From contig NZ_JAESVB010000029.1 of assembly GCF_020618775.1 (NCBI RefSeq), positions 1-24,000 on the forward strand: DNA of 24,000 nt, in the 5' to 3' direction. The notes beneath the pieces are model-generated. The model was not told the origin of the DNA and did no database searches. It saw only the letters and a list, made by a program, of their open reading frames with translations. Both the position numbers and the translations under genes were made by a program. Numbering within the stretch: the stretch's first letter is position 1; the number at the start of each line of letters is the position of its first letter. Origin of the DNA: Acidisoma silvae. Lineage in GTDB: Bacteria; Pseudomonadota; Alphaproteobacteria; Acetobacterales; Acetobacteraceae. Below are positions 3,257 through 21,884 of the stretch, one piece after another.

Positions 3257-5743
3257 ATGATCGACAGCAAGGTGTTGGCCATTCCGCGCAGGCCTCCTAT
3301 TATTTCGCCGGTTAGCCGCACAGGCCTGATCCGATGCCTGTCTTGCCTGTTGGTTGCTGGCTGGTTGATCATTCAGGCCCACGGCGGTGTGGTATTGGCT
3401 CAAGCAGCCCAGTCAGATCAGGCCCCCTTATATCTGCAGCCAGTGATCGATGGACGCAGTGTTAATGGATTCCTGCCGGTGACGGCAGAGTCGGGCGGTT
3501 TGTTAATTAAGAGTTCTGATATGGAGAAACTCGGCATATCAAGCCGAATTGGCAAACCGGCAGGGCCGGGATACCGGCTTGTCCCGACGTCCGGCCAGGC
3601 AAGTGCTGCGATCAATATGGCCGATCAAACGGTCGTCTTTCACATTCCTCAGGCTTTGATCTTGCCCAATATCACCAATCTCGGCGCTGGCTCCGCTATA
3701 CAGGCGCCGCAAAGCAATGCTACCGGTGCCTATTTCAATTACAATTTAGGGGTAACCACGCCCTTTTCGAACGGCAATGGTCAAAGCGTCGCCTCGCTTT
3801 TGGGCAATGTGAACAGTGTCTTGTTCTCGCCTTGGGGAATGCTGCTGTCGCAGACAGGTATTCAGCTTCCCGCCATTCCCGGCAGCGACCAGCCGGCTGT
3901 GTCCCGTTTATCGACGACCTATGAATATGACGATGTCACAGTGCCGCGTGCTGTCCGCTTGGGCGATATCATTACCACGCCGCCCGGCTGGGCGCGCAGC
4001 AATCTCATGGGGGGATTCCAGATCGCGAGTGACTATAGTCTTCTTCAGCCTCAGACAACGATTTTTCCGACGCCGCAGATCGGCAGCAACCTGTCTGTGC
4101 CTTCTGCCGTGTCCCTGCTCGTCAATAATTCGCGGGCCTATAACGGCAATCTGGAAGCGGGCCCCTATGCGCTGGTGGGCATTCCTGTTCTGACCGGACT
4201 CAATAGCATTACCGTGCAGACTCGCAGCCCCAGTGGTCAGGTCACATCGCAGAGCGTTCCCTTCTATGTTAGCCCGACAATGTTGAAGGCAGGGCTTTTC
4301 ACCTATGAGGCATCGCTCGGCTATCTGCGGCAAAATTACGGAACCTTACAAGACGGCTATAGTAACCCTGCGACCGACGATACGTTGAACTATGGCATTT
4401 CGGACGATTATACCGGAACGCTACATATGGAGGCATCGGCCACCCTGGCCTTGCTGGGTGCGACGCTGGAAACGTCCGGCCTGTTCGGCGATCTTTCCGT
4501 CTCAACGGCCGGTAGCATCCACAAGGGCGCCTTGGGTACGCTTGTCTCGGTCAACTATACGCGCACCGGAAACACGCTCAGCCTTGCCGCAGGAGCAACT
4601 GTAGCGGGACCTGGTTACTATGATCTGGCGGCGGAAAACGGTGCACCTTTTCCACGACTTAATTGGTATGTCTCGACCGGTCTGTCGCTGCCTTTTCATA
4701 TTGGCACTCTGAGCGCCGCTTATACCGAGCAGATTTCGACACCCACGGCCTACACGCCAACGACGGATTACAATGCCGGGCGCTATTCGCTTTATAACCA
4801 GCAACAGACCGGTCTGGCAGGCAATAGCCGGTTTCTCATCCTGACTTATAGCCGCACCTTTCTGTCGGATTGGTCGCTCAACGTCTCCGCCTTCGCAGGA
4901 CAAAGCGAGACGAATTCCGAAACCAGCAACTCAAACGGCATCAATCTCAGCCTCAATTTCCCGCTTGGCCATACGCCCCGTGGCAGCCTGACCTTTGGTG
5001 CCGGCAGCAATATGGGGCCGCAATATGGTCAGGTCTTCTCGGCATTGCCGAGCACGCAATACGGATACGGCGGCCAGGTTCAGAACCAGTTCGGCAATAA
5101 TGGCTCAAGCTACGGTCTCTTCCAGGCCAATACCCATGTGGCCGATTTTGCCACGACCCTCAGCCGCTTCGACAATCAGGAATCCGGCCAGCTGATTGCC
5201 AATGGCACGATCGCTGCCTTCGACGGATTGCACTTCAGCTCGCCCACGCGATCGGCGTTCGCGGTGGTCGATGTCGGCTTTCCCAATGTGCCAGTCTCTT
5301 TGTCGAACCAACCAGTCGCGAAGACTGGAAAGAATGGAAAGGTCTTCGTGCCCGGGTTGACATCGAACTATCCCAATCTCGTATCGATCGATCCTGCGGA
5401 TCTGCCGCTCTCGGCCAATATCAAGACGAGTTCTATCACGGTCGTACCACCGCTGTACGGCGGCGTCGTGGCGCGCTTTCCAAGTAAACCGATCACGGAT
5501 GTGCTGATCCGCATCACGAATGCGGACGGCAGCGTGCCGGCGGCGGGGTCACTCATTTACCTGACAGGGTCGGACCAGCCCGCGACCGTGGTGGGCTATG
5601 ACGGTGAGGCGATGATCACGAATGCGCCGAAGCAACTGACTGGATATGTCGTCTCTGCCAAGGGGAAATGCGCACTTTCCGCGAGGCTGTCGGTCACGAC
5701 GGCTCATTACTTGAAGGGTCAATCAGTCAAATGCGTACCCTGA
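3257..5743 (+). CDS. Outer-membrane fimbrial usher (CsuD-type)
   Basis: 828-aa beta-rich protein with an N-terminal signal region (LLVAGWLIIQAHGGVVLAQA). The composition is Gly/Ser/Thr/Asn/Tyr-rich and barrel-like, with RLGDIITTPPGW and usher-like N-terminal (LYLQPVIDGRSVNG) and C-terminal domains. The stop overlaps the next subunit gene. Confidence 0.9.
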   Translation: MIDSKVLAIPRRPPIISPVSRTGLIRCLSCLLVAGWLIIQAHGGVVLAQAAQSDQAPLYLQPVIDGRSVNGFLPVTAESGGLLIKSSDMEKLGISSRIGKPAGPGYRLVPTSGQASAAINMADQTVVFHIPQALILPNITNLGAGSAIQAPQSNATGAYFNYNLGVTTPFSNGNGQSVASLLGNVNSVLFSPWGMLLSQTGIQLPAIPGSDQPAVSRLSTTYEYDDVTVPRAVRLGDIITTPPGWARSNLMGGFQIASDYSLLQPQTTIFPTPQIGSNLSVPSAVSLLVNNSRAYNGNLEAGPYALVGIPVLTGLNSITVQTRSPSGQVTSQSVPFYVSPTMLKAGLFTYEASLGYLRQNYGTLQDGYSNPATDDTLNYGISDDYTGTLHMEASATLALLGATLETSGLFGDLSVSTAGSIHKGALGTLVSVNYTRTGNTLSLAAGATVAGPGYYDLAAENGAPFPRLNWYVSTGLSLPFHIGTLSAAYTEQISTPTAYTPTTDYNAGRYSLYNQQQTGLAGNSRFLILTYSRTFLSDWSLNVSAFAGQSETNSETSNSNGINLSLNFPLGHTPRGSLTFGAGSNMGPQYGQVFSALPSTQYGYGGQVQNQFGNNGSSYGLFQANTHVADFATTLSRFDNQESGQLIANGTIAAFDGLHFSSPTRSAFAVVDVGFPNVPVSLSNQPVAKTGKNGKVFVPGLTSNYPNLVSIDPADLPLSANIKTSSITVVPPLYGGVVARFPSKPITDVLIRITNADGSVPAAGSLIYLTGSDQPATVVGYDGEAMITNAPKQLTGYVVSAKGKCALSARLSVTTAHYLKGQSVKCVP

Positions 5744-6249
5744 CAATTATTTTGAGTGTCGCGGGGGTGCTTCTTGTGATGCTGCCGAGACCCAGCCAAG
5801 CTGTGCTTATCTGCGACGGCGGCAGTGTTCTTGGCCTGCCTAGCGGAGCACCGGCTGTGACAGCGACTCCGATGGTTTTCGGCGCTTATATGGCCTCTTT
5901 GGGGACTCCGACGACAATTACGAATACCATTACGGTCGCCTGTGTCGGTGCGGCTTTGAATCTGCTGCCGTATTTGCCGGCTTTCACGATCACACTCAGC
6001 GCGGGAAGTTCCAGCAGTTTCTCTCCACGCAAATTTACAGGCCCCTCGACAGCGCTTTCCTACAACATTTATACGACCGCGGCGATGACCGCCGTCTGGG
6101 GCAATGGCACTGGGGGCAGCGTTACCCAGGCGGGCGGCAACAACCTTTTCGCATCCCAGACTTTTACCGGCTATGGCTCCATCCCAAAGGGACAGTGGGT
6201 CAAGGCCGGTAGCTACACGGATACGATCACGATAACGGTCACTTATTGA
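5731..6249 (+). CDS. SCPU-domain pilus subunit (distal gene, possible tip or minor subunit)
   Basis: The ATG at 5731 overlaps the usher stop (5741-5743). Signal peptide MRTLTIILSVAGVLLVMLPRPSQA. SCPU features are present: MVFGAY, VACVG, LSYNIY and the C-terminal SYTDTITITVTY. The longer ORF-track start (5668) lies inside the usher gene. Confidence 0.85.
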   Translation: MRTLTIILSVAGVLLVMLPRPSQAVLICDGGSVLGLPSGAPAVTATPMVFGAYMASLGTPTTITNTITVACVGAALNLLPYLPAFTITLSAGSSSSFSPRKFTGPSTALSYNIYTTAAMTAVWGNGTGGSVTQAGGNNLFASQTFTGYGSIPKGQWVKAGSYTDTITITVTY

Positions 6250-6665: not shown

Positions 6666-7748
6666 CTAGCCGCCGCCCTTCATCAAAACCTTGATGGAGT
6701 CGAGTGAGTTCGCGAGCTTGATGGCCTCGTCCCAATCCGCGAAGGCAAAGTCATGCGTGACGATTCCTTTGGACGTTACCAGGCCGCGCGACAGCAGATC
6801 GATTGCGATTGGATAGCAGTACGGGCCCAGATGGGAGCCACGAATATCGAGTTCCTTGCGGTCACCGATGATCGACCAATCGACCGTCGTCTCCTTGCCG
6901 AAGACCGAGAACTCAACAAAACGGCCAAGCTTACGGACGAGAGACAGGCCCTGCACGACTCCGGAGGGTGATCCAGTGGCCTCGATATAGACGTCGCACC
7001 CGTAGCCGTCGGTCGCATCCTGCACGATCTTCAGCGCGTCCGCCTCGGCCGGGTTGATCGTGATGTCGGCGCCGAAACCGCGCGCCAGCGCCAGCCGCTC
7101 CGGCACCATGTCGATGACGATCAGCTTCTTCGGCGTCTTCAATTTCGCTACCTGCACCATCATCAGCCCGATCGGGCCGGCGCCGGCGATGACGACGACA
7201 TCGCTGAGCTGAATATCGCCGCGCTGCACGGTGTGAATGGCGCAGGCCATCGGCTCAATGATTGCCGCATCCTCAAGCGAAAGTTCAGGTGGAATGACAT
7301 GCACGCGGGCGGTGCGCGGGATCAGCATATAATCTGACATGCCGCCATCTGCGACATCGCGCTGGAAGCCGAAGATATTATGGACCTCACACATCCAGTA
7401 GGAACCGCTACGGCAGTAGCGGCAGCGGTCGCACGGAACGATCTGTTCAGCGATGACGCGGTCTCCTGCCTTTAATCCGAAATGGCTGGCGGCATCCGCT
7501 CCCATCTCGTCGACGACGCCGAAGAATTCATGCCCTGGTACGACGGGCGGTTTCACGTAAGGGTTGTCGCCACCCCAGAACATCTTCGCACCCGACCAGC
7601 ATTTGCAATCACTGGCGCAGATGCCGCAGGCAGTGATGCGGATAACCACCTCGCCCGGACCGGGCGAGGGCCTGTCTTTTTCCTCCACCCGGTAATCTTC
7701 AGGACCATAGCAGACGATGGCGGTCATGCGATTGTTCGGCAGGCTCAT
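6666..7748 (-). CDS. Zn-dependent MDR-family polyol dehydrogenase (sorbitol / erythritol-threitol dehydrogenase-like)
   Basis: Catalytic Zn motifs are CGICASD and PGHEF. The structural Zn cluster is CDRCRYCRSGSYWMC. The Rossmann motif is IAGAGPIGL. The start overlaps the upstream ATPase stop (ATGA at 7745-7748). Substrate is inferred only from context. Confidence 0.9.
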   Translation of the reverse strand: MSLPNNRMTAIVCYGPEDYRVEEKDRPSPGPGEVVIRITACGICASDCKCWSGAKMFWGGDNPYVKPPVVPGHEFFGVVDEMGADAASHFGLKAGDRVIAEQIVPCDRCRYCRSGSYWMCEVHNIFGFQRDVADGGMSDYMLIPRTARVHVIPPELSLEDAAIIEPMACAIHTVQRGDIQLSDVVVIAGAGPIGLMMVQVAKLKTPKKLIVIDMVPERLALARGFGADITINPAEADALKIVQDATDGYGCDVYIEATGSPSGVVQGLSLVRKLGRFVEFSVFGKETTVDWSIIGDRKELDIRGSHLGPYCYPIAIDLLSRGLVTSKGIVTHDFAFADWDEAIKLANSLDSIKVLMKGGG

Positions 7749-8857
7749 GGCCCGGACTTCCTCTCGGTGAATGACGTTTGCGACGATAGGGTCTGGACGC
7801 CATGCATCAGGGCCTGGCCCGTCTTGGCGTCGAACAGATGCAGATCGCGCGGTGCAAAGCCAAGTGGAATGACGCTGCCTGTGCGAGCCGCAATGCGGTG
7901 ATGGGCGACGACCACGATCAGTCGCCCGCCCATGTCGAGTGCGACATGGGCTTCATCGCCCAGCCAACGGTTGGAGATGACGGTGGCAGCCCAATCGCCT
8001 TGCCCGAGCGTGATGGCGTGTGGCCTGAGACCAAGCACAACCGGCGTGCCGAGCGGCGGCAGGGTGACGCCAGGCAGTGACGCGTGGGTATTGTCATCGC
8101 CGTCCAAAATCAGGCCGCTATTGCCGACAACGGCCGGCAGCGCGTTCATGGGCGGTTCCCCGAAAAAGGTCGCGACAAACAGGTTTGCCGGCTGCTCCCG
8201 CAATTCCGTTGGTGTGCCGTATTGCTGCAGCACGCCTCCCTCCATGACGGCGATGCGGTCGGCCATGGCATTTGCTTCAGTTTGGTCATGCGTCACGAGC
8301 ACGGAGGTCAGGCCCCGCGCTTTCGTGAGGGCCTTGACCCGGCCGCGTAGAATCGCGCGCAGCTGCGGCTCCAATTGCCCCATTGGTTCATCCAGCAAAT
8401 GAAGCTCGGCGTCGCGCGCCAGCGCACGGGCCAAGGACGCCCGCTGCTGCTGGCCGCCCGAGAGGCCGGCAGGCTTGCGCTTCAGGATAGGGCCGATTTC
8501 CAGTAAATCGGCCAGTTCCCGGACGCGCTGGCGCGGGTCGAACCCCGGCTTGGCGGCAAGGCCGAAACCGATATTGTCCTCGACCGTCAAGGGTGGGTAA
8601 AGCGCATAGCCCTCGAAAGCCATGGCGACGCGACGCTGTGCCGGCGGCAGCCCATCGATGCGGCGGCCGGCCAGGGTAATGCTGCCCTCCGTCGCTGCTT
8701 CGAATCCGGCGATCATGCGTAGCGTGCTGGTCTTGCCGCAACCAGAGGAGCCGAGAAGGGCGATGAACTCACCGTCCTCAATCTGCAAGCTGAGGTCCTT
8801 CACCGCGCGCACCGTGCTGCGGCCGTAGGCTTTGCTGAGGTGGTCGAGCAGCAGCAT
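7745..8857 (-). CDS. ABC transporter ATP-binding protein, MalK/UgpC type (NBD 1)
   Basis: Walker A GSSGCGKT, signature LSGGQQQR, Walker B HLLDEP, H-loop VTHDQ, and a C-terminal MalK-like regulatory domain. The Q-loop (AFEGYALYP) and D-loop (MGQLE) are atypical. Confidence 0.95.
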   Translation of the reverse strand: MLLLDHLSKAYGRSTVRAVKDLSLQIEDGEFIALLGSSGCGKTSTLRMIAGFEAATEGSITLAGRRIDGLPPAQRRVAMAFEGYALYPPLTVEDNIGFGLAAKPGFDPRQRVRELADLLEIGPILKRKPAGLSGGQQQRASLARALARDAELHLLDEPMGQLEPQLRAILRGRVKALTKARGLTSVLVTHDQTEANAMADRIAVMEGGVLQQYGTPTELREQPANLFVATFFGEPPMNALPAVVGNSGLILDGDDNTHASLPGVTLPPLGTPVVLGLRPHAITLGQGDWAATVISNRWLGDEAHVALDMGGRLIVVVAHHRIAARTGSVIPLGFAPRDLHLFDAKTGQALMHGVQTLSSQTSFTERKSGP

Positions 8858-13287: not shown

Positions 13288-14217
13288 TCAGGCGCCCCAG
13301 TGTCGCTCCTCAGTCACTGGGGAAGGCGGTGAAATGACGGCCGTTACCGCAAGATCCGCGATGGCGTGGTGATGATTGCGGAAAGCGCGCGGTGCCATTC
13401 CTTTATGGGCAAGAAATTGCCGATTGAAATTCGACAGATTGGCGAAACCGACCAGAAAACAGATATCGGCTATCCTTGTCTTGTCGGCAATGAGCATGTC
13501 GCAGGCGCGTTTGATGCGCATGCTGTTGACGTAATAAACGAAACTGACGCCAGCATGGCGGCGGAAGGCGCGAGAAAAGGCTGCCAGCGAATAGCCGCTG
13601 AGCGCGGCCATCTCTGTTTCATGCAATTCGGTTGCGAAATTCGATGCGATATAGTCTAGAACATGGTTGAGCGGTTGCGCCATGTAAGTCGCAGGATCGG
13701 ATCGATATGCTTGGCTCGATAAAATGCGCTTCGCCGTTGAGCGGTTCAGCACGTCAAGCAAGGCAAAAAACAAGGCGAGGCGCCGCACGCCATGGGTCGT
13801 CAGCATGTCTCGCAGCAGCGGTTCGGCGGCTTTGGCATCCTCGGCTGAAAACTGCACGCCAAACGCGGCGTCCTTAAGCAGGCCCTCGACGCAGGACATT
13901 TCAGGAAAATTGTCGCAGCAGCGCCGGACAAAATCTTCGCCGAACTGAACGATCAATCCGCGCTCTGGCACACTGGAGCCGGCTGGCACGTCGCTGATCC
14001 AATTATGCGGCAAATTGGGACCTGTCAGGATAAGATTCCCCGGTTCAAACAGGCCGACATGATCGCCGACAAAACTCCGCCCGCTGGTCGCAGTTACCAG
14101 ATGGATCTCGTATTCGGGATGAAAGTGCCAGCGTACGGTCCGATAGGGATAGCCATGCGCCCAAACAGCAAAGGACGCATCCGTATGGAGGCTGACGACT
14201 TCGAGGTCAGGCTGCAT
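13288..14217 (-). CDS. AraC-family transcriptional regulator (cupin sensor plus HTH)
   Basis: The cupin-like N-terminus reads WHFHPEYEIHLVTATSGRSFVGDH..NLPHNW. The C-terminal AraC HTH reads LSGYSLAAFSRAFRRHAGVSFVYYVNSMRIKRACDML...GFANLSNFNRQF. The start is chosen at MQPDLEV (ATG 14217). An in-frame upstream start at 14322 is possible but adds a basic, non-conserved-looking extension. Confidence 0.85.
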   Translation of the reverse strand: MQPDLEVVSLHTDASFAVWAHGYPYRTVRWHFHPEYEIHLVTATSGRSFVGDHVGLFEPGNLILTGPNLPHNWISDVPAGSSVPERGLIVQFGEDFVRRCCDNFPEMSCVEGLLKDAAFGVQFSAEDAKAAEPLLRDMLTTHGVRRLALFFALLDVLNRSTAKRILSSQAYRSDPATYMAQPLNHVLDYIASNFATELHETEMAALSGYSLAAFSRAFRRHAGVSFVYYVNSMRIKRACDMLIADKTRIADICFLVGFANLSNFNRQFLAHKGMAPRAFRNHHHAIADLAVTAVISPPSPVTEERHWGA

Positions 14218-14508
14218 TTCTGTCACTGTTCGACATAGCCGGCCGACCCGCCATGGCTTTCCCCGACGTTTAAGGGGCTTTGCACCCCTTTCATCTTTTC
14301 TTGCCAGACAGTTATCCACCAAAGCATCAGGGCGTCTACATCACGCGCTCCGGAAGACTGATACTTTTTTGTTTGTGAGAATGATCGGACTTATGGGCTT
14401 TGGCTCGTCCTGATCGGATTTGAGCCTCATGCTCTGCAGCGTCTTGCCCACGTATCAGGGCTTTCTGGTGCCCGGACTTCGCCACCCCTCCTCTGGGGGA
14501 TATCGACA

Positions 14509-15198
14509 CTAAGAATTGCCGGTCGCGACACGGATGAAGGTATTAACGATCTTTGTCCCAGCCCTGATCGTGCCACCGAGAGAGCCCGCGACCTTCGATT
14601 GGCCACCTGCACGGCACCGATATGGCATGGGCACTTCCTGAATGCGGAGCTTGGCGCGGGCCGCGCGCATTTGCATTTCGATATTCCAGCCATAGGTCAT
14701 TTCGCGTAGCGCCAAACTCTCCAGAGCGCTGCGGCTGATCGCCCGGAAGGCGCACATATCGGTGTAGCGGACGCCGTAAAGCGCACCCATGCCGAAACCG
14801 GCCAGGCGGCCAGCCAGGACCTGATGCCAAAGCATCGCCCCGGGGTCGCGCGCGCCTTCCGTGCGGGAAGCGAGCACGAAATCCAGCGCGCCGCTCAGCA
14901 CCGGCCCGGCGATGCGCGCGATGAGGTCGCCACGGTCTGCACCATCGCCATCCATGAAGACAATCACGCGGCTGCCGGGCAGGGCCGCTGCGGCGCCCAT
15001 GGCACAGGCTCGGCCATAGCCGCGGCCGGCATCCAGAACACGCGCGCCGGCCGCTGCCGCAATCTGCTGCGTGCCGTCACGACTGCCGCCATCGGCGACG
15101 ATGATATCGCCCCTGTATTCCGCCGGGATTTCGCGCACAACCGCCCCGATGCTCTCGGCTTCGTTATAGGTCGGAATGACGAGGGTTACAGGCTCCAT
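14509..15198 (-). CDS. Family-2 glycosyltransferase (soluble, polyprenol-phosphate-sugar synthase-like)
   Basis: GT-A motifs are present: VTLVIPTYNEAESI, VADGGSRDGT, GRGYGRAC and FMDGDGAD (DxD). The ATG at 15198 overlaps the rSAM stop (15186). An upstream TTG at 15219 is an alternative start. Confidence 0.85.
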   Translation of the reverse strand: MEPVTLVIPTYNEAESIGAVVREIPAEYRGDIIVADGGSRDGTQQIAAAAGARVLDAGRGYGRACAMGAAAALPGSRVIVFMDGDGADRGDLIARIAGPVLSGALDFVLASRTEGARDPGAMLWHQVLAGRLAGFGMGALYGVRYTDMCAFRAISRSALESLALREMTYGWNIEMQMRAARAKLRIQEVPMPYRCRAGGQSKVAGSLGGTIRAGTKIVNTFIRVATGNS

Positions 15199-16241
15199 CG
15201 CATACCGCAATTCTGGCAAGGGGCTGGGGGGGCGTCGGAGAGCAGGCTATCGCGGAATGCGCGATAGACGTCGCCGTTCCAGATGTCCCGCAGATCCTGC
15301 TGGGTGGCGTCGCCAAGCGTGTAATTGCTGTAGCCGCGTACCGAGAAAGGCGCGATGCAGCAGGGCAGCGCCCGGCCATGGGCGGTGAAATACATCAGCG
15401 ACCAAGGTCTGCGGCACGTCGTCCAGGCCTTGTCCTCCGCCTGTCGTTTCAGGCTGAGACCGGGTTCGGTCGCACCCGAGGCGTCGAGCGTGACGCCGAG
15501 CGGCACGGCCAGCGCCTGCGCCGCTTCGATCGCCAGGCGTTCCTCTTCTTGCGTGCTTTCGAACAGCGAATTGGCAGCGGTCGCCATGCCATAGCCCTGT
15601 TCGTCAAAGACCAGACGCTGCAAATGGACTTCGGTAATGCCCATCTGCGCGGCCAGCCTCACGAAGGCCGGCAACTGCTCCACCGTTTCCTTCAAGCCGG
15701 TCAGCCAAAGCGAGACGCGCGGCGTGGTGGCACCCACCTGCTTCTGATAGGCGATGAACTTGCCGACATCACGGACGATGCGATTGAAGAAATCCTTGCC
15801 CCGCACGCGGGCATAGGATTCGCGGTCGGCGGCATCCAGCGAAACGCGCAGTTCATCAAGGCCGGTATCGATCAGCTCCTGAAAGCGCTTCGGCTGCATC
15901 AGAGTGCCGTTGGTATTGAACAGAACATAGGTGCCGCGATCCTTCAGATAGCGGATCATCTGCGGCAGATTCTGCACCAGCATCGGCTCACCCACGCCAT
16001 GCATGACGACGCGTGCGACATTGGGGACCTGATCGACGATCTTGGTGAACAGTTCCCAGCTCATATCAGCCGGAGGCTCCAGTTCCTCGAAGGTGCGCGG
16101 GCAGGTTTCGCACAGAAGGTTGCAGCGGTTCGTGACCTCCAGATACAGGCAGACCGGCGGTGCGGTGGCGACGGAAGACCGTTTGGCGCCGATCTCCTCG
16201 AAATAGCGGCGCGGATCTTTCAGCGCGACGGAAGCGGACAT
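15186..16241 (-). CDS. Radical SAM protein with C-terminal SPASM-type Cys-rich domain
   Basis: The CxxxCxxC motif reads EVTNRCNLLCETCPR, and the SAM-binding region reads MHGVGEPML. The C-terminus CRRPWSLMYFTAHGRALPCCIAPF....LGD....LRDIWNG...FR.....PCQNCGMRW is SPASM-like. The start is taken at MSASVALKD (ATG 16241). The longer ORF-track version (16346) overlaps the upstream gene by more than 120 nt. Confidence 0.9.
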   Translation of the reverse strand: MSASVALKDPRRYFEEIGAKRSSVATAPPVCLYLEVTNRCNLLCETCPRTFEELEPPADMSWELFTKIVDQVPNVARVVMHGVGEPMLVQNLPQMIRYLKDRGTYVLFNTNGTLMQPKRFQELIDTGLDELRVSLDAADRESYARVRGKDFFNRIVRDVGKFIAYQKQVGATTPRVSLWLTGLKETVEQLPAFVRLAAQMGITEVHLQRLVFDEQGYGMATAANSLFESTQEEERLAIEAAQALAVPLGVTLDASGATEPGLSLKRQAEDKAWTTCRRPWSLMYFTAHGRALPCCIAPFSVRGYSNYTLGDATQQDLRDIWNGDVYRAFRDSLLSDAPPAPCQNCGMRWSL

Positions 16242-17584
16242 GACATCTCTCCGGGTGGGTTTTGCGGGCGTCGCGATGCCGCGCGTCGTTGCAGCAGGTC
16301 GAGTAGCAGCAGGCCGGCTGCCGGCAGATAGATGAGCGAGGGCCAAAGGAAGCGATCATGCGGGATCGGCCCGATGATCAGCAGCAGAGGAGCGGTTGCG
16401 AGCCAGAGCAAGGCGGCAGAGGGTGCGACCACCGCCGGCAAAGCGAGCCACGCAAAATACCAATGATAATGCGCGCTCATGGCGACCATCGTAACGGCAG
16501 CGAGCATGCCGGCATCCTGGCACAGCCGCTGCGCGTCATTCTCGGGTGCGGCTCGGCGCAGGATTAAGACGGAAAGCAGCGTGAAGATCAGAACAGCCAC
16601 GAGCGCGTAGAGTTTGGACGCATAGGCGGGCAGGACGGTTAACTCAGCCAATCCCGCCAGCAGCCAGATGCCGGACCCGCTGTCGAGACCTTCTTCCGAT
16701 CCGTAGGTCGGGAGAAAGCCCAGGACATGCCGGCCTGCACTAATATAGACGGCATAAGCGGCGAGGATAACGGCGAGGCCGGCGAGGGTTGGGCGCCAGA
16801 ACCGTCCGCCGCGCAGCAAGGCAGGTGCCACGACAATGGGCAGAAACTTTGCCATCACGGCGCCGGCCAGTGCCGCACCGGCCCAGCCATTGCGGCGTTT
16901 TGCGCGTAGCAGCAGCGCCAGACCCACGAAACCGACAGCGATGGCATCGACATGCCCGTCACTCGCGAAAGACCACAGTGCCAACGGATTCCAGGCATAG
17001 ATCAAGATGCGTGCGCGAGGCAGGCCGGCCAGCGCCAGCAGCCAGAGCATGGACGCGATGCCCAAAGCCTCGCAGGCGAGCATCGCCAAACGAATCCCGG
17101 TCACGCCGTCCCACAGCCGTCCGGCAAGACCAAAGATCATTTCGGCAAAGGGCGGGTATATGGTGCGCGCATATTCCTTGCGGTTGATATGCGAATAGAC
17201 GGTGCCGTCACGCAAATCAGCGAGTTTGGGATCTGCCGGAATATAGCGATAGGGATTGATGTCATGGGCCTGCACCCGCCCGTCCCAGACATAGCGATAG
17301 ATATCGGTCGAGAGCATCGGCGGTGTGGTCAGCAGCGCAAGGCGTAGCAAGATCGCAACGCCAAGTACCAGCCATATGGTCTGCTTGGGCCAGTTTGCGC
17401 GCTGAATAAGAAGCACAGACCCGAAATAGACGGCTGCACTGATACCAAGAAGCGCCGCCAGCAGACCAAGCTTTGCGACATGGGCACCGCGTGCGATGGC
17501 CGGCGGGTCGATGCAGAGGCCTGCGACGGTCAGCGCCAGCAGCGTCACGCCAAGACCCGCAAGCACAAAAAGCCGTTTCGTCAT
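16220..17584 (-). CDS. Polytopic GT-C-type membrane glycosyltransferase (DUF2029 / GT87-like)
   Basis: 454 aa with 10 or more predicted TM helices. The first loop reads PPMLSTDIYRYVWDGRVQAHDINPYRYIP...RTIYPPFAEM, the D-x-Y/NPY loop typical of polyprenol-phosphate-sugar-dependent mannosyltransferase-like enzymes. ATGA overlap with the upstream gene at 17581-17584. Confidence 0.8.
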   Translation of the reverse strand: MTKRLFVLAGLGVTLLALTVAGLCIDPPAIARGAHVAKLGLLAALLGISAAVYFGSVLLIQRANWPKQTIWLVLGVAILLRLALLTTPPMLSTDIYRYVWDGRVQAHDINPYRYIPADPKLADLRDGTVYSHINRKEYARTIYPPFAEMIFGLAGRLWDGVTGIRLAMLACEALGIASMLWLLALAGLPRARILIYAWNPLALWSFASDGHVDAIAVGFVGLALLLRAKRRNGWAGAALAGAVMAKFLPIVVAPALLRGGRFWRPTLAGLAVILAAYAVYISAGRHVLGFLPTYGSEEGLDSGSGIWLLAGLAELTVLPAYASKLYALVAVLIFTLLSVLILRRAAPENDAQRLCQDAGMLAAVTMVAMSAHYHWYFAWLALPAVVAPSAALLWLATAPLLLIIGPIPHDRFLWPSLIYLPAAGLLLLDLLQRRAASRRPQNPPGEMSCPLPSR

Positions 17585-18354
17585 GCAGCGGAATCCTGGC
17601 GCAGATCATGCGCCAGACCCAGCTGCTCAATTGCCGTCCGCGTAAAGGGTGCCGCGTAGCCGCGTGTTTCCAGAAAAAGCTGACCCAGAGAGACGGCGTC
17701 ATCGACATCATACCAGGACGGCAGCTCTACGATTTCGAGACCAAGCTCAGCGGCCCGTGCGCGTGTGGCATCGGCGACGCTTTCCGTGCTCCAGGTGATG
17801 TCGCGGAACAGGCCGGCGTAAGGCGCGCGCATGCCCAGAAGATAGTAGCCTCCGTCATCGCAAGCCCCAAGAACAATGCGCTTGTCGTGCCCGTGTAAAA
17901 GAGTTTCTGCAGCGGCGACCAGAAATTCGGTCGGTAACGTCGGTGTGTCGGAGCTCAAAACACAGGCGGCGGTATGGCCTTGATCGAACTGGCCTTTGAT
18001 CGCCTGCCACAGCGAGCGGCCAAATCCTTCCACGCCAAATGGCGCGGGCAGCATCCCATCCGCCAGAATACAGGCGGTTTGCACCGCCAGATGCGGTAGC
18101 AGCTGGGCTTCGGTGCCGAGCGGCGCATAAGCCGCATAACTTGCGACAGGAACGGACCGCGACGCGGAAACGAGGTTTTCCGTCGTATCGCGCAGGAAGG
18201 CGGCACTGAGACCGGCTGCCTGATTATGCGTTAAAGGCGGACAAAGTCTGGTCTTGGAAAAGCCCGGCCTTGGCGTTTTCGCCATCACCGCTATGGCGCA
18301 GGCATTTTCCGAGGCACGTATTTCACTCGCTGTCATTTTCTGACCTTTTGACAT
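17581..18354 (-). CDS. DUF2064-family (TIGR04282-like) putative glycosyl/nucleotidyl transferase
   Basis: Family-like motifs are present: AIAVMAKTPRPGFSKTRLCPPL, VLSSDTPTLP, LGACDDGGYYLLGM, ITWSTESV and WYDVDD. The start is uncertain. Candidates are ATG 18354 (used here), ATG 18336, and TTG 18393. Confidence 0.8.
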   Translation of the reverse strand: MSKGQKMTASEIRASENACAIAVMAKTPRPGFSKTRLCPPLTHNQAAGLSAAFLRDTTENLVSASRSVPVASYAAYAPLGTEAQLLPHLAVQTACILADGMLPAPFGVEGFGRSLWQAIKGQFDQGHTAACVLSSDTPTLPTEFLVAAAETLLHGHDKRIVLGACDDGGYYLLGMRAPYAGLFRDITWSTESVADATRARAAELGLEIVELPSWYDVDDAVSLGQLFLETRGYAAPFTRTAIEQLGLAHDLRQDSAA

Positions 18355-18431
18355 TGCTCGCCGCGCGATCGTCTCGAGATCTATACGGGCCAAGTTCCGT
18401 CCGGTTACATGTTGGCACAGAAACGTGTGTG

Positions 18432-18896
18432 CTAATGCGACGGTTTCGCGAGACCGACTTTTAGGATCGTGTCATCGGCCACCGGTGTCGTGGCGTCAGG
18501 CGTGAACGTAGCAAAGGCCGCCAGTTGCTTGGGCGTATAGGCGACGACTTCCATCTCATCGCCAAGCAGGACCATGGCATCGATCGGCACGGCGATCAGC
18601 CGCCCGCCATAGCCATAGAAACCGCCAAAATTCATGACGACCGAGACATCACCTTGTGCGTTGCGAACGACCGATCGCACGCGCCCGAGGATGATCTGGC
18701 TTTCGACCGGCTGTAGAATAAGCCGATGTGCCAGATCGCCGGCGCGGACCGGCTGGGGAAAGCGCATGGCAGTCGATTCAGCCAAGCTCATGCCCGCAGG
18801 CGGCGGCATGCCGCCTGGCATCGGGCTTTGTGCGCAGGCGGGGGCTATGGCGAGCATAATTGCCGTGGCAACGACAATCGGAATGCTGTGCGGCAT
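18432..18896 (-). CDS. PRC-barrel domain protein, secreted
   Basis: The start is taken at MPHSIPIVVATAIMLAIAPACAQS (ATG 18896, 6 nt after the upstream stop). PRC-barrel-like core: ILGRVRSVVRNAQGDVSVVMNFGGFYGYGGRLIAVPID. The longer ORF-track start (18986) overlaps the upstream gene. Confidence 0.75.
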   Translation of the reverse strand: MPHSIPIVVATAIMLAIAPACAQSPMPGGMPPPAGMSLAESTAMRFPQPVRAGDLAHRLILQPVESQIILGRVRSVVRNAQGDVSVVMNFGGFYGYGGRLIAVPIDAMVLLGDEMEVVAYTPKQLAAFATFTPDATTPVADDTILKVGLAKPSH

Positions 18897-18901
18897 GGTA
18901 G

Positions 18902-19678
18902 TCACATTCCTGCGAACCATGGAAAGCCTTTGGATTCCCAGAAGCCCCCGGGATAGGTATTGGTTACTTCGATCGCCGTAATCCATTTTGGATTCTTATA
19001 GCCAAGCTTAACGGCGGTACGCAGACGCACGGGGAAGCCGAATGGGTCGGCCAATGGCTGCCCGCCATATTGCAGCGCCAGCACAGTCTGCGGATGTAGG
19101 GCTGCGGCCATATCGATACTGCTCGGATAATTATCCGCCGTCTGAAAGGCAACGTATTTGGCGCGGAGATCGGCGCCTGTCCGCTCCAGGAAGGTCCGCA
19201 GCGGCACGCCGGTCCATCCGCCGATATAGCTCCAGCCCTCGACGCAGATATGTTTGATGACGATGGAGCGTTGCGGCAGTGCTTGCAGATCCTGCAAGGT
19301 CCAGGGCCGCTTGTTTTGAATCAATCCCCCCAGTTCCAGTTTCCAAGTCGCGCCGTTGACCGGTTTGACATCCGTGACATCGTAATAGGCGTTGAATTTC
19401 GGTGGCCGCAGAATCATCGACGCCGGATAGGTCGGTGCGAGCTTGTTGGCATCGAACAGCAGGGCCTGGACACGGTCGTTAAGGTTGGAGATGGCAAGAA
19501 GCGCTTCTTCCACCGCTTCAGGGCGCTTCACGTCGCAGCCGGTCAGCATCACCAGCGAACCAAGGGTAAGCCCGGCGCGCAACAGCCCGCGCCGCTCCAG
19601 CGTTCGGATCAGCGTGCGGTGCATGTCCAGCACCGAGGCGTCTGGCGCATCATCTGGGCGAAAGGGTGATTTCGTCAT
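18902..19678 (-). CDS. Molybdopterin-dependent oxidoreductase (YedY/MsrP- or sulfite-oxidase-fold catalytic subunit), probable TAT lipoprotein
   Basis: The RR-type signal followed by a lipobox reads LERRGLLRAGLTLGSLVMLTGC. The Mo-domain motifs are HICVEGWSYIGGWTGVPL and FPVRLRTAVKLGYKNPKWI. ATGA overlap with the cytochrome b stop at 19675-19678. Confidence 0.85.
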   Translation of the reverse strand: MTKSPFRPDDAPDASVLDMHRTLIRTLERRGLLRAGLTLGSLVMLTGCDVKRPEAVEEALLAISNLNDRVQALLFDANKLAPTYPASMILRPPKFNAYYDVTDVKPVNGATWKLELGGLIQNKRPWTLQDLQALPQRSIVIKHICVEGWSYIGGWTGVPLRTFLERTGADLRAKYVAFQTADNYPSSIDMAAALHPQTVLALQYGGQPLADPFGFPVRLRTAVKLGYKNPKWITAIEVTNTYPGGFWESKGFPWFAGM

Positions 19679-20328
19679 TTCGATGCGCCTTGCGGTGAGC
19701 GTCTCTTTTCAAGACGGGGCCCGCCGGCGAGCATGGCCCAGATGGTCTTTGGCACGAGTACTGCAAGGAGAACGTGGACGATAACGAAGCCGACGATGAC
19801 GACCATGCCCGCGAAATGAAAGACGCGGACCGATTGAAAGCCACCGAACAGACTGACCAGGCTGGAGAATTGCACCGGCTTCCACAGCGCCAATCCAGTC
19901 AAGGCCTGATTGATGGAGGCGAGGATGACGAGGATGTACAGCAGCTTTTGCACCGCGTTATAAACGGTGAGGTCTTCGTGCGCGATTTTGAAGTGCAGTG
20001 TCTCGACGACAGTTTTGACGACATCGCGCGGGCGGATGGGCAACAGCCTTTCCCGCAAGCGGCCGGTCGCTACTCCATAGGTAAGATAGATCAGGCCGTT
20101 TATGCCAAAAAACCACATGCCAGCGAAATGCCAGTTCACGCTCCAGGCTGCCCATTCGCCCAGGCGCAAGTAGCCTGGAAAATGCAGCCCGTTGATGATG
20201 ACATCGTCATTATAGATGCCCCAGCCGGACGTGATCATGACCATCATCGCGGCTGCATTGATCCAATGCATGACCCTGATGGCTAAGGGGTGAAGGCGGC
20301 GATCTTTCGGTGATCGTTCTTTCTTCAT
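19675..20328 (-). CDS. Cytochrome b-type membrane subunit (Ni/Fe-hydrogenase/PhsC cytochrome b family)
   Basis: 217 aa with 4-5 TM helices. Conserved His positions occur in RVMHWINAAAMM, WHFAGMWFF and FHFAGMVVIVGFVIVHV. GAGGA lies 9 nt upstream of the ATG. It is paired with the Mo-oxidoreductase gene. Confidence 0.85.
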   Translation of the reverse strand: MKKERSPKDRRLHPLAIRVMHWINAAAMMVMITSGWGIYNDDVIINGLHFPGYLRLGEWAAWSVNWHFAGMWFFGINGLIYLTYGVATGRLRERLLPIRPRDVVKTVVETLHFKIAHEDLTVYNAVQKLLYILVILASINQALTGLALWKPVQFSSLVSLFGGFQSVRVFHFAGMVVIVGFVIVHVLLAVLVPKTIWAMLAGGPRLEKRRSPQGASK

Positions 20329-20933
20329 GGTGTTCGATCCTCAGCGTTAAGCAGCCTGGGTGGAACAAAAATAAGACTTAACAGAAAGGACGAAATTTTA
20401 TTAAAAAGAATAATAACGTGACGGGCACGCTACCGGCATCAAGTGCAAGATGCGCGGAGGACTGCAACGTATTTCATGGAAGCGACATAACAGTAGCAAA
20501 GTTAGTGCGCAGTCCGATCTGTTATTGATTACGGGCAACGGGTTGCGTCAGGCAAACGCCATCTATCCGGCCTTGGTTAGAGCTATAGACAGCAGACAGA
20601 AAATATCATTCTGCATCATAAAACCTCACTGAACTCTATTGTCATACGACGCAGACACCAGCCTCGCTGACACACTTGGCATTTGCCTCTCTATTCGAAG
20701 CCTGACCAACTGCGGTTACAGCACTAACCATATAAATTTACATTCGCTAGAATAATTGGCCGAATCTCAAATGGAGCGATGCTTTGTTCGATTTGAACAT
20801 CCATAGGCTTTACATGCTGAAAAATATCATCGCTCTACTGGTCGGTGCGTTTCGCGAGGTCAGCGAGAGCATTTGAGCGCCCGCAAGGTTAAAATCGATT
20901 GGCGACATGCAGAGATCGATACGGTATTGTCTT

Positions 20934-21151
20934 TCACTCAATGACTGCCACCTGGTCCATTTGGCCAGTTAATATTGCCGTGGCTGTAGCCAATGCGAAC
21001 GTGGCGGCTCCTAGCCAAATTGAACTATGAAGACCAGCATGGGTTACTAAAATGTCCCCAGCCAGGGCGGCAGAGGTTATGAAAAGCTGAAACACACTTG
21101 TATTGATAGCCTGAGCGGCCTCGCGGGTGGCGCTCAAAAGCCATATAGCTA
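20934..21151 (-). pseudogene. 3' fragment of a membrane transporter gene (MFS-like) interrupted by the IS5-family element
   Basis: The frame is open from the IS junction: ..AIWLLSATREAAQAINTSVFQLFITSAALAGDILVTHAGLHSSIWLGAATFALATATAIL. This resembles the last two helices of DHA-type MFS proteins. There is no plausible start or RBS of its own. Confidence 0.5.
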
Positions 21152-21158
21152 GAGCATG

Positions 21159-21884
21159 TCATGCACCTTGCATGAGATTTGCGGCTTGTTTGAGCATGTA
21201 GCCGACGAACGCGACAACCCATCGCCTGGGTAGGAGAACGAAGCCTCGTTTGGCCTCGGGCAGTTTAACGACCTCTAGCCTGATGCCTTCCGCCGCGGCG
21301 GCGTTTGCGACTGTCTCGCCCGTATAGCTCTGATCGACATAGGCAACAGACACTGCATCACCAGTAGCGTCCTGGATATCGGCAGCCAGGCGGGCGACAG
21401 CCTCACGGTCGCCGACATCGGCTGCCGTCACATGCAAAGCGAGCAGGTGGCCGAGCGTATCGACCGCCAGATGAACCTTAGATCCACGCTTCCGCTTGGC
21501 ACCGTCATAGCCGGCGCGAGTGCCACTTTCAGGCGTGGAGCGCAGAGTGCGGCTGTCCATGATCGCGGCCGTCGGCTCCGCCTGGCGTCCTGCGGCTAAA
21601 CGGAGGACAGCGCGCAAATCCTGCGCCAGGGTCTCGAAACATCCCGCTGCCAACCACCGGTGGGCCTGCTGGTGGACCGCATGCCAAGGCGGGAGGTCGT
21701 TCGGCATGGCACGCCAAGCTATACCGTAACGGATCACATACCGCAGGGCGTTGAACAGTTCGCGCAGCGGATACTCCCGCTGGGGCGCATCTTCCTTCAT
21801 CAAGGTCAGATACCCGACCACAAGCGACCACTCTTCGTCACTGACATCAGATGGATATGGCTTGCGGGTGCGGGCATTCCTCAT
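21159..21884 (-). CDS. IS5-family transposase (DUF4096-type N-terminus plus DDE domain), in-frame internal deletion near the C-terminus
   Basis: The N-terminus reads KPYPSDVSDEEWSLVVGYL. The DDE region reads AAIMDSRTLRST...VHLAVDTLGHLL...VDQSYTG. The sequence jumps from LPRRWVV directly to AFVGYMLKQAANLMQGA, where family members normally have ERSFAW...DYER...LAGLH (about 30 aa, containing the catalytic Glu). Confidence 0.85.
   Translation of the reverse strand: MRNARTRKPYPSDVSDEEWSLVVGYLTLMKEDAPQREYPLRELFNALRYVIRYGIAWRAMPNDLPPWHAVHQQAHRWLAAGCFETLAQDLRAVLRLAAGRQAEPTAAIMDSRTLRSTPESGTRAGYDGAKRKRGSKVHLAVDTLGHLLALHVTAADVGDREAVARLAADIQDATGDAVSVAYVDQSYTGETVANAAAAEGIRLEVVKLPEAKRGFVLLPRRWVVAFVGYMLKQAANLMQGA

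Follow-up and report, generated by a model that had tools for sequence, protein, structure and literature searches.

A conserved four-gene module of Acidisoma silvae predicted to place a radical-modified unusual sugar on the outer face of the membrane

What single task could a DUF2064 protein, a GT-C membrane glycosyltransferase, a radical SAM enzyme (rSAM) and a GT2 glycosyltransferase share? The four genes lie together on the minus strand of Acidisoma silvae in the window, the 24,000-nucleotide stretch of DNA that was analyzed. The reading we favor, with a probability of roughly 58%, is that they constitute a widely conserved module that passes a radical-modified unusual sugar from a lipid carrier to an acceptor at the membrane's outer face.

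Layout and conservation of the four genes

The gene coordinates and the overlaps between genes were read from the sequence:

17581-18354, minus strand: DUF2064 protein, CofC/MobA-like nucleotidyltransferase fold
17581-17584, minus strand: ATGA stop/start overlap of the DUF2064 stop with the GT-C ATG
16220-17584, minus strand: polytopic GT-C glycosyltransferase of the MptA_B/GT87 (DUF2029) type
16220-16241, minus strand: 22-nt overlap of the GT-C 3' end with the rSAM start
15186-16241, minus strand: rSAM with a Twitch-type domain and a single predicted auxiliary [4Fe-4S] cluster
15186-15198, minus strand: 13-nt overlap of the rSAM 3' end with the GT2 start (ATG at 15198)
14509-15198, minus strand: soluble GT2 of 229 aa

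These positions and the three overlaps (4, about 22 and about 13 nt) agree exactly with the original prediction. The likely DUF2064 start is the ATG at 18354 in a frame that is open up to a TTG at 18393, and the rSAM ATG at 16241 has a GGAGAG motif 5 nt upstream.

A gene neighborhood survey found the four genes to be syntenic. Among the 66 related loci with enough flank, 56 have the complete set and 53 keep the DUF2064>GT-C>rSAM>GT2 order on one strand within 5 kb, an arrangement that is more than chance. In related loci, medians of the estimated junction gaps lie between -1 and +5 nt. Identity of the rSAM ranges from 70 to 88% among Acetobacteraceae and Methylobacterium, and the module's parts recur in Desulfobacterales (L088), Chloroflexota (L085) and further uncultured lineages (L082, L096, L097 and the P0136 contig). 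A Dehalococcoidia locus (L090) encodes DUF2064, rSAM, a DUF2079 membrane protein and GT2, and a Bathyarchaeia locus (L092) has DUF2079 and rSAM only. Natural fusions join DUF2064 to rSAM (P0167, P0183, P0192 and P0212) and GT2 to rSAM (P0138). The synteny, the distant loci and the gene fusions therefore support the earlier proposal that the four genes are one functional unit. Many distant loci also encode a second rSAM and a methyltransferase, both of which are missing from the window, so the four genes may fall short of the full pathway.

The radical SAM enzyme and its partners

The rSAM motif CNLLCETC covers residues 40-47 and supplies the CX3CX2C cysteines C40, C44 and C47; the motifs CRRPW, PCCIAPF and PCQNCGMRW follow. 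Pfam matches are Radical_SAM at 57.5 bits and SPASM at 52.9 bits. The C terminus had been called SPASM-type, and the motifs and the Pfam match agree with that call, but the cysteines do not fit a two-cluster domain. There are only five conserved C-terminal cysteines (C276, C294/C295, C342 and C345), and in the alignment they are in register with the four residues that ligate the single Twitch cluster of BtrN. By this alignment, the C-terminal domain is a one-cluster Twitch and not a full two-cluster SPASM. The view that such an architecture is normally tied to peptide or cofactor maturation is corrected by the same cysteines: BtrN acts on a carbohydrate, and a carbohydrate substrate is thus no anomaly for the rSAM.

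Profile searches place the rSAM outside every curated family, and no paper covering it was found. Its best NCBIfam match is TIGR04317 (143 bits against a cut-off of 380) and TIGR04311 scores 127 bits; both are families of putative tungsten- or metallo-enzyme maturases, and the matches span the N-terminal core only. The fold neighbors of the AF2 model (pLDDT 88.8) include the sugar- or nucleotide-modifying enzymes DesII, BlsE, BtrN and viperin, as well as SuiB and SkfB, which score equal to DesII; the fold search does not split sugar-acting from peptide-acting rSAM enzymes.

The Pfam SPASM match and the fold likeness to SuiB, SkfB and CteB are what a peptide (RiPP) maturase with an overlooked short precursor gene would display. 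Across 59 loci, no conserved ORF of 25-90 aa was found up to 1.5 kb from the module, as the original prediction had noted for this locus, and the four largest recurrent small-ORF families fall inside cytochrome b or molybdoenzyme coding sequence. There is no room for a precursor between the module genes because they overlap. The fusion partners of the rSAM are GT2 and DUF2064, not peptide-recognition domains, and its C-terminal domain aligns with a single-cluster Twitch. A RiPP maturase is rejected on these grounds as extremely improbable, and the rSAM is instead the predicted tailoring enzyme of the module.

The DUF2064 protein matches its Pfam family at 69.5 bits, in line with the earlier call, CofC at 25.7 bits and PDB entry 3CGX with E=2e-16. 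The motifs AKxPxPGxxKTRL and DGGYY are kept across 72 homologues. It is predicted to activate a phosphorylated sugar or precursor with a nucleotide. A score of 126.3 bits against TIGR04282, slightly under the cut-off of 134, together with a weak GT2 match to TIGR04283, would suit an arsenosugar-type (organo-metalloid sugar) locus of the TIGR04282/TIGR04283/ArsS kind. That assignment is highly improbable. GT2 falls short of TIGR04283, with 49 bits where the cut-off is 182, no ArsS-type family is among the 25 NCBIfam matches listed for the rSAM, there is no ArsM gene nearby, and the candidate second rSAM at the distant Chloroflexota locus is not ArsS either. The rSAM and GT2 scores bear out the original distinction between this locus and the arsenosugar system.

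GT2 (Pfam Glycos_transf_2, 60.6 bits) has AglJ (119 bits), a Dol-P-hexose transferase (54 bits) and PpgS (49 bits) as its best NCBIfam matches, and Pyrococcus Dol-P-Man synthase (5MLZ) as its best PDB match. The DxD motif (D90-G-D92) and the RxxGxSK motif (R203xxG206xS208K209) are invariant across 74 homologues. GT2 is predicted to be a polyprenyl-phosphate sugar synthase, the resemblance first proposed for it.

The membrane protein has about 11-12 hydrophobic segments and invariant residues (D94, R97, Y98, W100 and D101) in the loop behind the third. Its Pfam GT87 score of 22.5 bits is below the cut-off of 25, and an identical protein (P0334) bears a precomputed PF26314 MptA_B_family match. 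The top Foldseek matches of the AF2 model (pLDDT 89.4) are ArnT with undecaprenyl phosphate, GPI mannosyltransferase I with Dol-P-Man (TMq 0.60) and PimE. The PF26314 match, the model and its structural neighbors uphold the identification as GT-C, and the protein is predicted to take its sugar from polyprenyl phosphate and pass it to a periplasmic acceptor.

Predicted pathway and the upstream molybdoenzyme genes

We infer a reaction order, substrate, product and acceptor for the module as follows. The four overlapping genes would encode a single pathway in which the unusual sugar is assembled in the cytoplasm. The DUF2064 protein would start by coupling a phosphorylated sugar to a nucleotide through its CofC/MobA-like nucleotidyltransferase fold. 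The rSAM would then take a hydrogen from the activated sugar, leading to epimerization, oxidation or deoxygenation; the original prediction placed this radical step on the lipid-linked sugar, and either that form or the nucleotide-linked one may be the substrate. GT2 would load the tailored sugar onto polyprenyl phosphate in the manner of Dol-P-Man synthase, ArnC, PpgS and MtxS. Once the loaded carrier has been flipped, GT-C would remove the sugar from it at the periplasmic face of the inner membrane and place it on a glycan, lipid or protein of the envelope.

Three more genes lie upstream on the same strand:

19675-20328, minus strand: cytochrome b561-type membrane protein (Pfam Ni_hydr_CYTB, 70.5 bits)
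18902-19678, minus strand: YedY/MsrP-like periplasmic molybdoenzyme of the sulfite-oxidase fold, associated upstream gene (Pfam Oxidored_molyb, 107 bits)
18432-18920, minus strand: small secreted protein p184 with a signal-like N terminus, associated upstream gene, non-core

The functional unit probably extends to these genes. The molybdoenzyme carries a twin-arginine motif and an LTGC lipobox, scores 76.7 bits against MsrP (NF003767, cut-off 207), and has E. coli YedY (1XDQ) as its nearest PDB entry, with the CVEGWS motif aligned. Its gene shares an ATGA overlap (19675-19678) with that of the cytochrome b561-type protein, the presumed electron partner. Among 81 loci, the molybdoenzyme adjoins the module in 36-38, and cytochrome b co-occurs with the molybdoenzyme in 33-35 of the 81. 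The p184 N-terminal sequence is MVRRNVTTMPHSIPIVVATAIMLAIAPACAQS; the protein has no match in Pfam or NCBIfam, and homologues stand behind the molybdoenzyme in 9-10 related loci. The linkage to molybdoenzyme and cytochrome b genes in many alphaproteobacterial lineages was overlooked in the original prediction. The probable target of the two proteins is the installed group or its acceptor.

This neighborhood also raises a quite unlikely alternative, in which the rSAM and DUF2064 would serve to mature the YedY-like molybdoenzyme, acting on its pterin cofactor or on the protein itself, and the two glycosyltransferases would be unrelated or secondary. Molybdoenzyme and cytochrome b genes adjoin the module in 25 of 44 rSAM lineages and at the more distant L097, but no molybdoenzyme gene lies within 10 kb in the other 19. 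Three loci (L002, L072 and L077) place the rSAM, with or without DUF2064, beside the molybdoenzyme and have no GT2 or GT-C within 10 kb; L002 and L072 are reduced loci that fit maturation, and L077 is interrupted by a transposase. The relation of DUF2064 to CofC, ModA-like binding proteins in 24 loci and FdhD in 7 also fit. The best rSAM profile matches are the putative tungsten- or metallo-enzyme maturases and MoaA, but that similarity is to the generic rSAM core only and far under cut-offs. Against this alternative, the examined loci outside Proteobacteria (Chloroflexota, Desulfobacterales and Bathyarchaeia) retain the rSAM beside GT2, GT-C or DUF2079, and DUF2064 without such a molybdoenzyme, a GT2-rSAM fusion exists, and sulfite-oxidase-fold enzymes use unmodified Mo-molybdopterin.

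Comparison with known systems

In M. tuberculosis, the GT2 MtxS (Rv0539) makes decaprenyl-P-methylthioxylose and the GT-C MtxT (Rv0541c) transfers methylthioxylose to an envelope glycan. The Acidisoma module has the same logic of a small GT2 that would produce a polyprenyl-phosphate-linked unusual sugar for transfer by a GT-C. By part list, with the proteins compared by description, MtxS/MtxT capping is the closest characterized analogue. We take Rv0540, between the MtxS and MtxT genes, to be a DUF2064 protein. Angala et al. reportedly described in 2017 that the mycobacterial cluster also has a methylthioadenosine phosphorylase, which we take to be Rv0535, and a GalE-like epimerase. The mycobacterial cluster is without a radical SAM enzyme, whereas the Acidisoma module is without an NAD-dependent epimerase. 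The module, by contrast with the mycobacterial system, is found in Gram-negative Alphaproteobacteria and members of other phyla, and lipoarabinomannan cannot serve as its acceptor. This precedent for a GT2 and GT-C pair serving one unusual sugar was unnamed in the original prediction.

The analogy suggests a refinement that is possible, if unlikely: the sugar may be a 5-substituted pentofuranose that originates from a nucleoside and resembles mycobacterial methylthioxylose or an arsenosugar. Methylthioadenosine, 5'-deoxyadenosine or a different 5'-modified adenosine would be split by a nucleoside phosphorylase to give a pentose-1-phosphate for activation by DUF2064. The rSAM would stand in for the mycobacterial NAD-dependent epimerase, and GT2 and GT-C would then install the product. 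The part list equals the MtxS/MtxT set. In 16 of 81 loci a DeoD-type nucleoside phosphorylase adjoins the module, its placement varying between loci, but it is missing from the window and most loci and could merely clear inhibitory 5'-deoxyadenosine. The DUF2064 score lies near TIGR04282, a family for which the other known partner is ArsS, an adenosylating rSAM, and DUF2064 is found fused to two unrelated rSAM families, which hints at a connection with the 5'-deoxyadenosyl chemistry that rSAM enzymes share. Sulfur-trafficking genes (rhodanese, DsrE, FdhD and DoxX-like) are sporadic nearby, but no methylthio-specific enzyme was found.

The favored lipid-linked sugar pathway has further counterparts. 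ArnC/ArnT and PpgS/Rv3779-type systems likewise pair a GT2 polyprenyl-phosphate sugar synthase with a GT-C transferase; the GT-C model finds its best structural match in ArnT, and PpgS and ArnC are among the GT2 profile matches, with scores far under the cut-offs of these families. Those systems use conventional nucleotide-sugar tailoring enzymes and have no radical SAM enzyme and no DUF2064. The TIGR04282/TIGR04283/ArsS (TIGR04167) loci share the triad of DUF2064, GT2 and radical SAM enzyme, but the module rSAM is of the Twitch type and not ArsS, the module GT2 is not TIGR04283, and the module has a GT-C and is without an arsenic methyltransferase. The upstream genes resemble MsrP/MsrQ (YedY/YedZ) in pairing a YedY-like molybdoenzyme with a membrane heme b protein. 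The window molybdoenzyme is shorter than MsrP and has a lipobox, and its partner is of the cytochrome b561/Ni_hydr_CYTB type, which we take to be a different family from MsrQ; no MsrQ model is among the Pfam and NCBIfam matches listed for the upstream genes. BtrN, DesII and BlsE combine an rSAM core with a C-terminal one-auxiliary-cluster domain, as predicted for the module rSAM, and HygY and NeoN are presumably further sugar-acting Twitch-related enzymes. Identity of the rSAM to BtrN/DesII/BlsE-type enzymes is only 15-19%, and the matches are too unspecific to infer a reaction. BtrN, DesII and BlsE belong to antibiotic pathways, whereas the module rSAM sits in a predicted envelope glycosylation operon.

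Gene layout and conservation of the module

The original prediction described four overlapping minus-strand genes, encoding a DUF2064 protein, a GT-C glycosyltransferase, a radical SAM enzyme (rSAM) and a GT2 glycosyltransferase, as a single functional unit. The window is from Acidisoma silvae (Acetobacteraceae), and its rSAM and GT-C proteins are 100% identical to NCBI entries of this species. Reading of the sequence located the four open reading frames and their overlaps exactly at the positions claimed, downstream of three further genes on the same strand.

Module genes and upstream genes in the window
19675-20328, minus strand, cytochrome b561 gene, upstream of the module
18902-19678, minus strand, YedY/MsrP-like Tat-lipoprotein molybdoenzyme gene; ATGA overlap with the cytochrome b gene; product with an RR motif and an LTGC lipobox
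18432-18920, minus strand, small secreted protein gene, ending 77 nt before the DUF2064 start
17581-18354, minus strand, DUF2064 gene; likely ATG at 18354, after the 77-nt gap from the secreted-protein gene
16220-17584, minus strand, GT-C gene; ATGA overlap with the DUF2064 gene at 17581-17584
15186-16241, minus strand, rSAM gene; 22-nt overlap with the GT-C gene; GGAGAG 5 nt ahead of the ATG at 16241
14509-15198, minus strand, GT2 gene; 13-nt overlap with the rSAM gene

The 14000-21000 interval shows no sigma-70-like promoter, and the genes are not separated by any convincing terminator. An Rfam scan of 13500-21500 returned 0 matches, and thus there is no SAM or Moco riboswitch in this interval. 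Elsewhere in the window, the plus strand carries a chaperone-usher pilus locus at 1467-6249 with two SCPU (spore-coat-protein-U/Csu-type) subunits, a PapD-like chaperone and an usher. On the upstream side of the cytochrome b gene, 20329-21884 holds an AT-rich spacer (GC about 0.49) and then an IS4/IS5-family transposase gene (DUF4096 and DDE_Tnp_1) at 21159-21884.

A scan of one genome per species identified 80 related loci, mostly in Acetobacteraceae and Methylobacterium, at which the rSAM is 70-88% identical and the partner proteins 42-80% identical to their window counterparts. All four genes are present at 56 of the 66 loci with sufficient flank, and the order DUF2064, GT-C, rSAM, GT2 is kept on one strand within 5 kb at 53 of these 66. 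Median estimated gaps at the module junctions run from -1 to +5 nt. Exhaustive searching of representatives at 50% identity returned 447 clusters of rSAM homologues at E ≤ 1e-30, and distant members with 35-65% identity retain the same partner genes. Natural fusions join DUF2064 to the rSAM in four proteins (P0167, P0183, P0192 and P0212) and GT2 to the rSAM in a fifth (P0138). A search of 59 loci for a conserved adjacent precursor ORF (25-90 aa) found none flanking the module beyond ORFs inside known coding sequence. The synteny, the fusions, the distant loci and the lack of a flanking small ORF show that the four genes are one old, widely distributed functional unit, as predicted, and that the module is a real finding beyond chance.

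Gene content of distant loci (L, compared genomic locus; P, protein from the homologue searches)
L090, Dehalococcoidia: DUF2064, rSAM, DUF2079 membrane protein, GT2
L088, Desulfobacterales: large GT2, MptA_B GT-C, DUF547, small GT2, second rSAM, rSAM
L085, Chloroflexota: methyltransferase, second rSAM, GT2-rSAM fusion, followed by DUF2079 and DUF2064
L082 and L096: GT87, large GT2, small GT2, DUF2064-rSAM fusion
P0136 contig: rSAM, methyltransferase, second rSAM-like gene, GT-C, DUF2064, GT2
L092, Bathyarchaeia: DUF2079 adjoining rSAM

A DUF2079 membrane protein takes the place of the GT87-type GT-C at L090:9005-10432, L092:6417-7889 and L085:9103-11121. These three proteins are 25-28% identical among themselves and have no BLAST similarity to the window GT-C.

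The radical SAM enzyme and its auxiliary domain

The rSAM belongs to the radical SAM superfamily, with an invariant CX3CX2C motif (C40, C44 and C47) and a PF04055 score of 57.5 bits against a cut-off of 29.5. The motifs named in the original prediction (CNLLCETC, CRRPW, PCCIAPF and PCQNCGMRW) are all in the sequence, and the protein matches Pfam SPASM (PF13186) at 52.9 bits. The predicted SPASM-type C terminus holds to the extent of this match and fails for a true two-cluster SPASM domain, which has 7-8 conserved C-terminal cysteines including CX2CX5CX3C. An alignment of 21 family members that share 34-64% identity with the window protein shows only five conserved C-terminal cysteines (C276, C294, C295, C342 and C345) and no CX2CX5CX3C motif. 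The C-terminal 87 residues align to BtrN residues 163-235 (phmmer, E = 0.002), the best alignment among all PDB sequences, with four cysteines in register. The BtrN pattern is C-x18-C-x43-CxxC, and from the published structure we take its four aligned cysteines to be the ligands of the single auxiliary cluster. A Twitch domain, the BtrN-like form with one auxiliary cluster, was defined as C-x(17-18)-C-x(40-50)-CxxC aligned with these ligands, and the rSAM has this arrangement. By its cysteine register, the "SPASM" domain is a Twitch domain. The NF033640 model also matches residues 309-380.

The rSAM was compared with the curated NCBIfam families and reaches the cut-off of none; the best scores, with cut-offs in parentheses, are 143 (380) for TIGR04317, 128 (400) for TIGR04311 and 72 (381) for PqqE. 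The AlphaFold model (pLDDT 88.8) has fold neighbors at TM-scores of 0.6-0.68 that include the peptide maturases SuiB and SkfB together with the sugar- or nucleotide-modifying enzymes DesII, BlsE, BtrN, viperin and MoaA. This fold search is too unspecific to assign a reaction, and the modeled fold is compatible with a sugar substrate without being diagnostic of one.

The original prediction had remarked that no precursor-like gene accompanies the rSAM, which the 59 loci bear out. The architecture is that of known carbohydrate-acting rSAM enzymes, so the missing peptide partner largely ceases to surprise. A reading of the rSAM as a peptide (RiPP) maturase was rejected on the strength of the fusions, the Twitch domain and the absence of a precursor ORF. 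Among more distant relatives, P0208, P0224, P0225 and P0255 are giant proteins of 827-1423 aa that carry two rSAM-SPASM modules at roughly 28% identity with the window rSAM, in one case together with TPR repeats and a sulfotransferase domain.

Partner proteins and the proposed pathway

The DUF2064 protein scores 69.5 bits against Pfam DUF2064 and matches CofC weakly. Only one relative has a solved structure: 3CGX, a putative nucleotide-diphospho-sugar transferase. Across 72 homologues, AKxPxPGxxKTRL is conserved at the N terminus, and a DGGYY motif is conserved as well.

GT2 is a soluble protein of 229 aa (PF00535, 60.6 bits). Its best NCBIfam matches are AglJ, dolichyl-phosphate hexose transferase and PpgS, each under its cut-off, and its best PDB match is the Pyrococcus Dol-P-Man synthase. 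The DGD (DxD) and RxxGxSK motifs are invariant, and RxxGxSK is typical of polyprenyl-phosphate glycosyltransferases. These matches are in keeping with the likeness to polyprenyl-phosphate-sugar synthases that had been proposed; GT2 is a candidate member of the DPMS/GtrB/ArnC/PpgS/MtxS type, with a lipid as the putative acceptor.

GT-C has about a dozen hydrophobic segments. Our Pfam scan gave a sub-threshold GT87 match (22.5 bits, threshold 25), and an identical protein has a precomputed match to PF26314 (MptA_B_family), a model that the local Pfam copy evidently lacked or under-scored. Near homologues also match GT87. D94, R97, Y98, W100 and D101 are invariant and sit in the loop that follows hydrophobic segment 3 and probably faces the periplasm. 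The AF2 model (pLDDT 89.4) was searched with Foldseek and matches ArnT with undecaprenyl phosphate, GPI mannosyltransferase I with Dol-P-Man (TMq 0.60) and PimE; all significant PDB matches are GT-C enzymes with polyprenyl-phosphate-linked donors. The GT-C fold and the conserved acidic residues D94 and D101 place the protein in the GT-C superfamily (GT87/MptA_B type), in agreement with the polytopic GT-C enzyme first proposed.

The pairing of GT2 with GT-C defines the overall logic, in which a sugar is attached to polyprenyl phosphate at the cytoplasmic side of the membrane and transferred at its outer side, and the DUF2064-rSAM and GT2-rSAM fusions assign the rSAM to one pathway with these two partners. 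In the simplest order, the DUF2064 protein would activate a phosphorylated sugar with a nucleotide, the Twitch rSAM would tailor the activated sugar, GT2 would load the tailored sugar onto the lipid carrier and GT-C would put it on an acceptor; the substrate, product and acceptor in this scheme are what we infer. Alternatively, the radical chemistry may act on the lipid-linked sugar rather than the activated sugar, as suggested in the original prediction. The module is best classed as a lipid-carrier envelope glycosylation system in which tailoring by a Twitch radical SAM enzyme is an integral step.

Linked genes and comparison with known systems

Among solved structures, the upstream molybdoenzyme is nearest to E. 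coli YedY, and the CVEGWS motif is aligned between the two. It falls outside MsrP, defined by an NF003767 score of 207 bits or more and an MsrQ partner: it scores 76.7 bits and is paired with a cytochrome b561-type protein. At 36-38 of 81 loci, corresponding to 25 of 44 rSAM lineages (85% identity), a molybdoenzyme/cytochrome b pair is encoded within 10 kb of the module. The position of the pair varies (upstream, downstream or inverted), a ModA-like binding protein often accompanies it, and in a clade with a 63% identical rSAM the pair directly follows the module. The association is real, and the molybdoenzyme may act on the installed group. Another reading would make the rSAM a maturase for the molybdoenzyme, and at the reduced loci L002, L072 and L077 the rSAM, with or without DUF2064, does adjoin cytochrome b/molybdoenzyme genes with no GT2 or GT-C within 10 kb. 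No such molybdoenzyme occurs, however, at the loci examined outside Proteobacteria, and this speaks against the rSAM simply serving as its maturase.

The reduced loci lacking GT2 and GT-C within 10 kb also include L003, and in this group the rSAM lies beside molybdoenzyme genes or alone. A transposase immediately follows the rSAM at L077, and L003 is a partial second copy, found in a MAG that has a full module as well (L059).

A second rSAM family with the full CX2CX5CX3C SPASM motif is absent from the window and occurs beside the module in L085, L088, L095 and three Methylobacterium loci. Its members (L021:5930-6976, L016, L022, L085:2784-3782, L088:6995-7996, L095:7003-8028 and L094:11827-13254) are 38-67% identical among themselves. 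The L094 member is fused to DUF2064, so that, besides ArsS, at least two unrelated rSAM families have DUF2064 as a partner. An ArsS/ArsM reading of the L085 neighbors, a 332-aa rSAM and a methyltransferase, was discarded because NCBIfam shows that neither is such a protein; the 332-aa rSAM defines the second full-SPASM family. Class I methyltransferases recur in distant loci and are weakly similar to each other.

A DeoD-type nucleoside phosphorylase (16 of 81 loci, variously arranged) and a DoxX-like membrane protein (19 of 81) occur up- or downstream of the module, and neither is in the window; examples of phosphorylase/DoxX neighbors are L021:5074-5904, L074:6295-7176 and 14 other loci. Two apparent conserved neighbors, f19 and f44, were dismissed as shadow ORFs that lie out of frame with, or antisense to, the nucleoside phosphorylase gene. 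Sulfur-trafficking genes (rhodanese, DsrE, FdhD and DoxX-like) are sporadic near the module. Thiol-redox or sulfur genes were seen in unrelated lineages: rhodanese at L085:7850-8941, DsrE with DsbD_TM and Redoxin at 6782-8783 of the P0136 contig, and FdhD at L042:6945-7808.

The module core is present in several bacterial phyla and, in partial form, one archaeal lineage, and it corresponds to no curated family. Literature on DUF2064, on DUF2079 or DUF2029 together with radical SAM, on the names of TIGR04282 and on Rv0540 yielded nothing useful, and no paper in the literature searched covers the module. If solved, the module would disclose a new sugar, or a new way of modifying one, on the surface of common soil, plant and lichen bacteria (Methylobacterium, Acetobacteraceae), assign a function to DUF2064 and widen by one reaction the small repertoire of Twitch enzymes that act on carbohydrates. 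The answer could also account for the frequent co-encoding of a YedY-like molybdoenzyme.

The module is distinct from the arsenosugar-type loci (TIGR04282, TIGR04283 and ArsS), a difference also drawn in the original prediction. The DUF2064 protein scores 126.3 bits against TIGR04282, just under the cut-off of 134, GT2 scores 49.1 against 182 and no ArsS-type family is among the 25 of 48 rSAM NCBIfam matches listed. That prediction was largely right, with three corrections: the Twitch rather than SPASM domain, the precedent of MtxS and MtxT, and the linked molybdoenzyme/cytochrome b pair.

The closest characterized analogue is the M. tuberculosis methylthioxylose (MTX) pathway, the likeness being one of part class (GT2 and GT-C). 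MtxS (Rv0539, GT2) makes decaprenyl-phospho-methylthioxylose and MtxT (Rv0541c, GT-C) moves MTX onto lipoarabinomannan's mannoside caps. Rv0540, encoded between them, is presumably a DUF2064 protein. Work by Angala and colleagues in 2017 reportedly describes a cluster that includes methylthioadenosine phosphorylase and a GalE-like epimerase, and two features here echo this pathway: the nucleoside phosphorylase beside the module at 16 of 81 loci, and the presence of a radical enzyme in the module where mycobacteria have an epimerase. A detailed extension of the analogy is a long shot: the module would install a thioether or otherwise oxidizable 5-substituted pentose on an envelope acceptor as a Gram-negative counterpart of MTX, with the rSAM supplying the step of the mycobacterial NAD-dependent epimerase, and the periplasmic molybdoenzyme with its cytochrome b would re-reduce the oxidized sugar with quinol electrons, giving a regenerable antioxidant coat outside the cytoplasm whose core is widespread in bacteria and partial (DUF2079 and rSAM) in some archaea.

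Envelope decoration by a GT2 and GT-C pair on a lipid carrier is well known. ArnC/ArnT, PpgS/Rv3779 and MtxS/MtxT share with the module the logic of cytoplasmic loading and outer-face transfer. The examples considered (lipid A aminoarabinose, mycobacterial galactosamine and methylthioxylose) have no rSAM as a fixed part.
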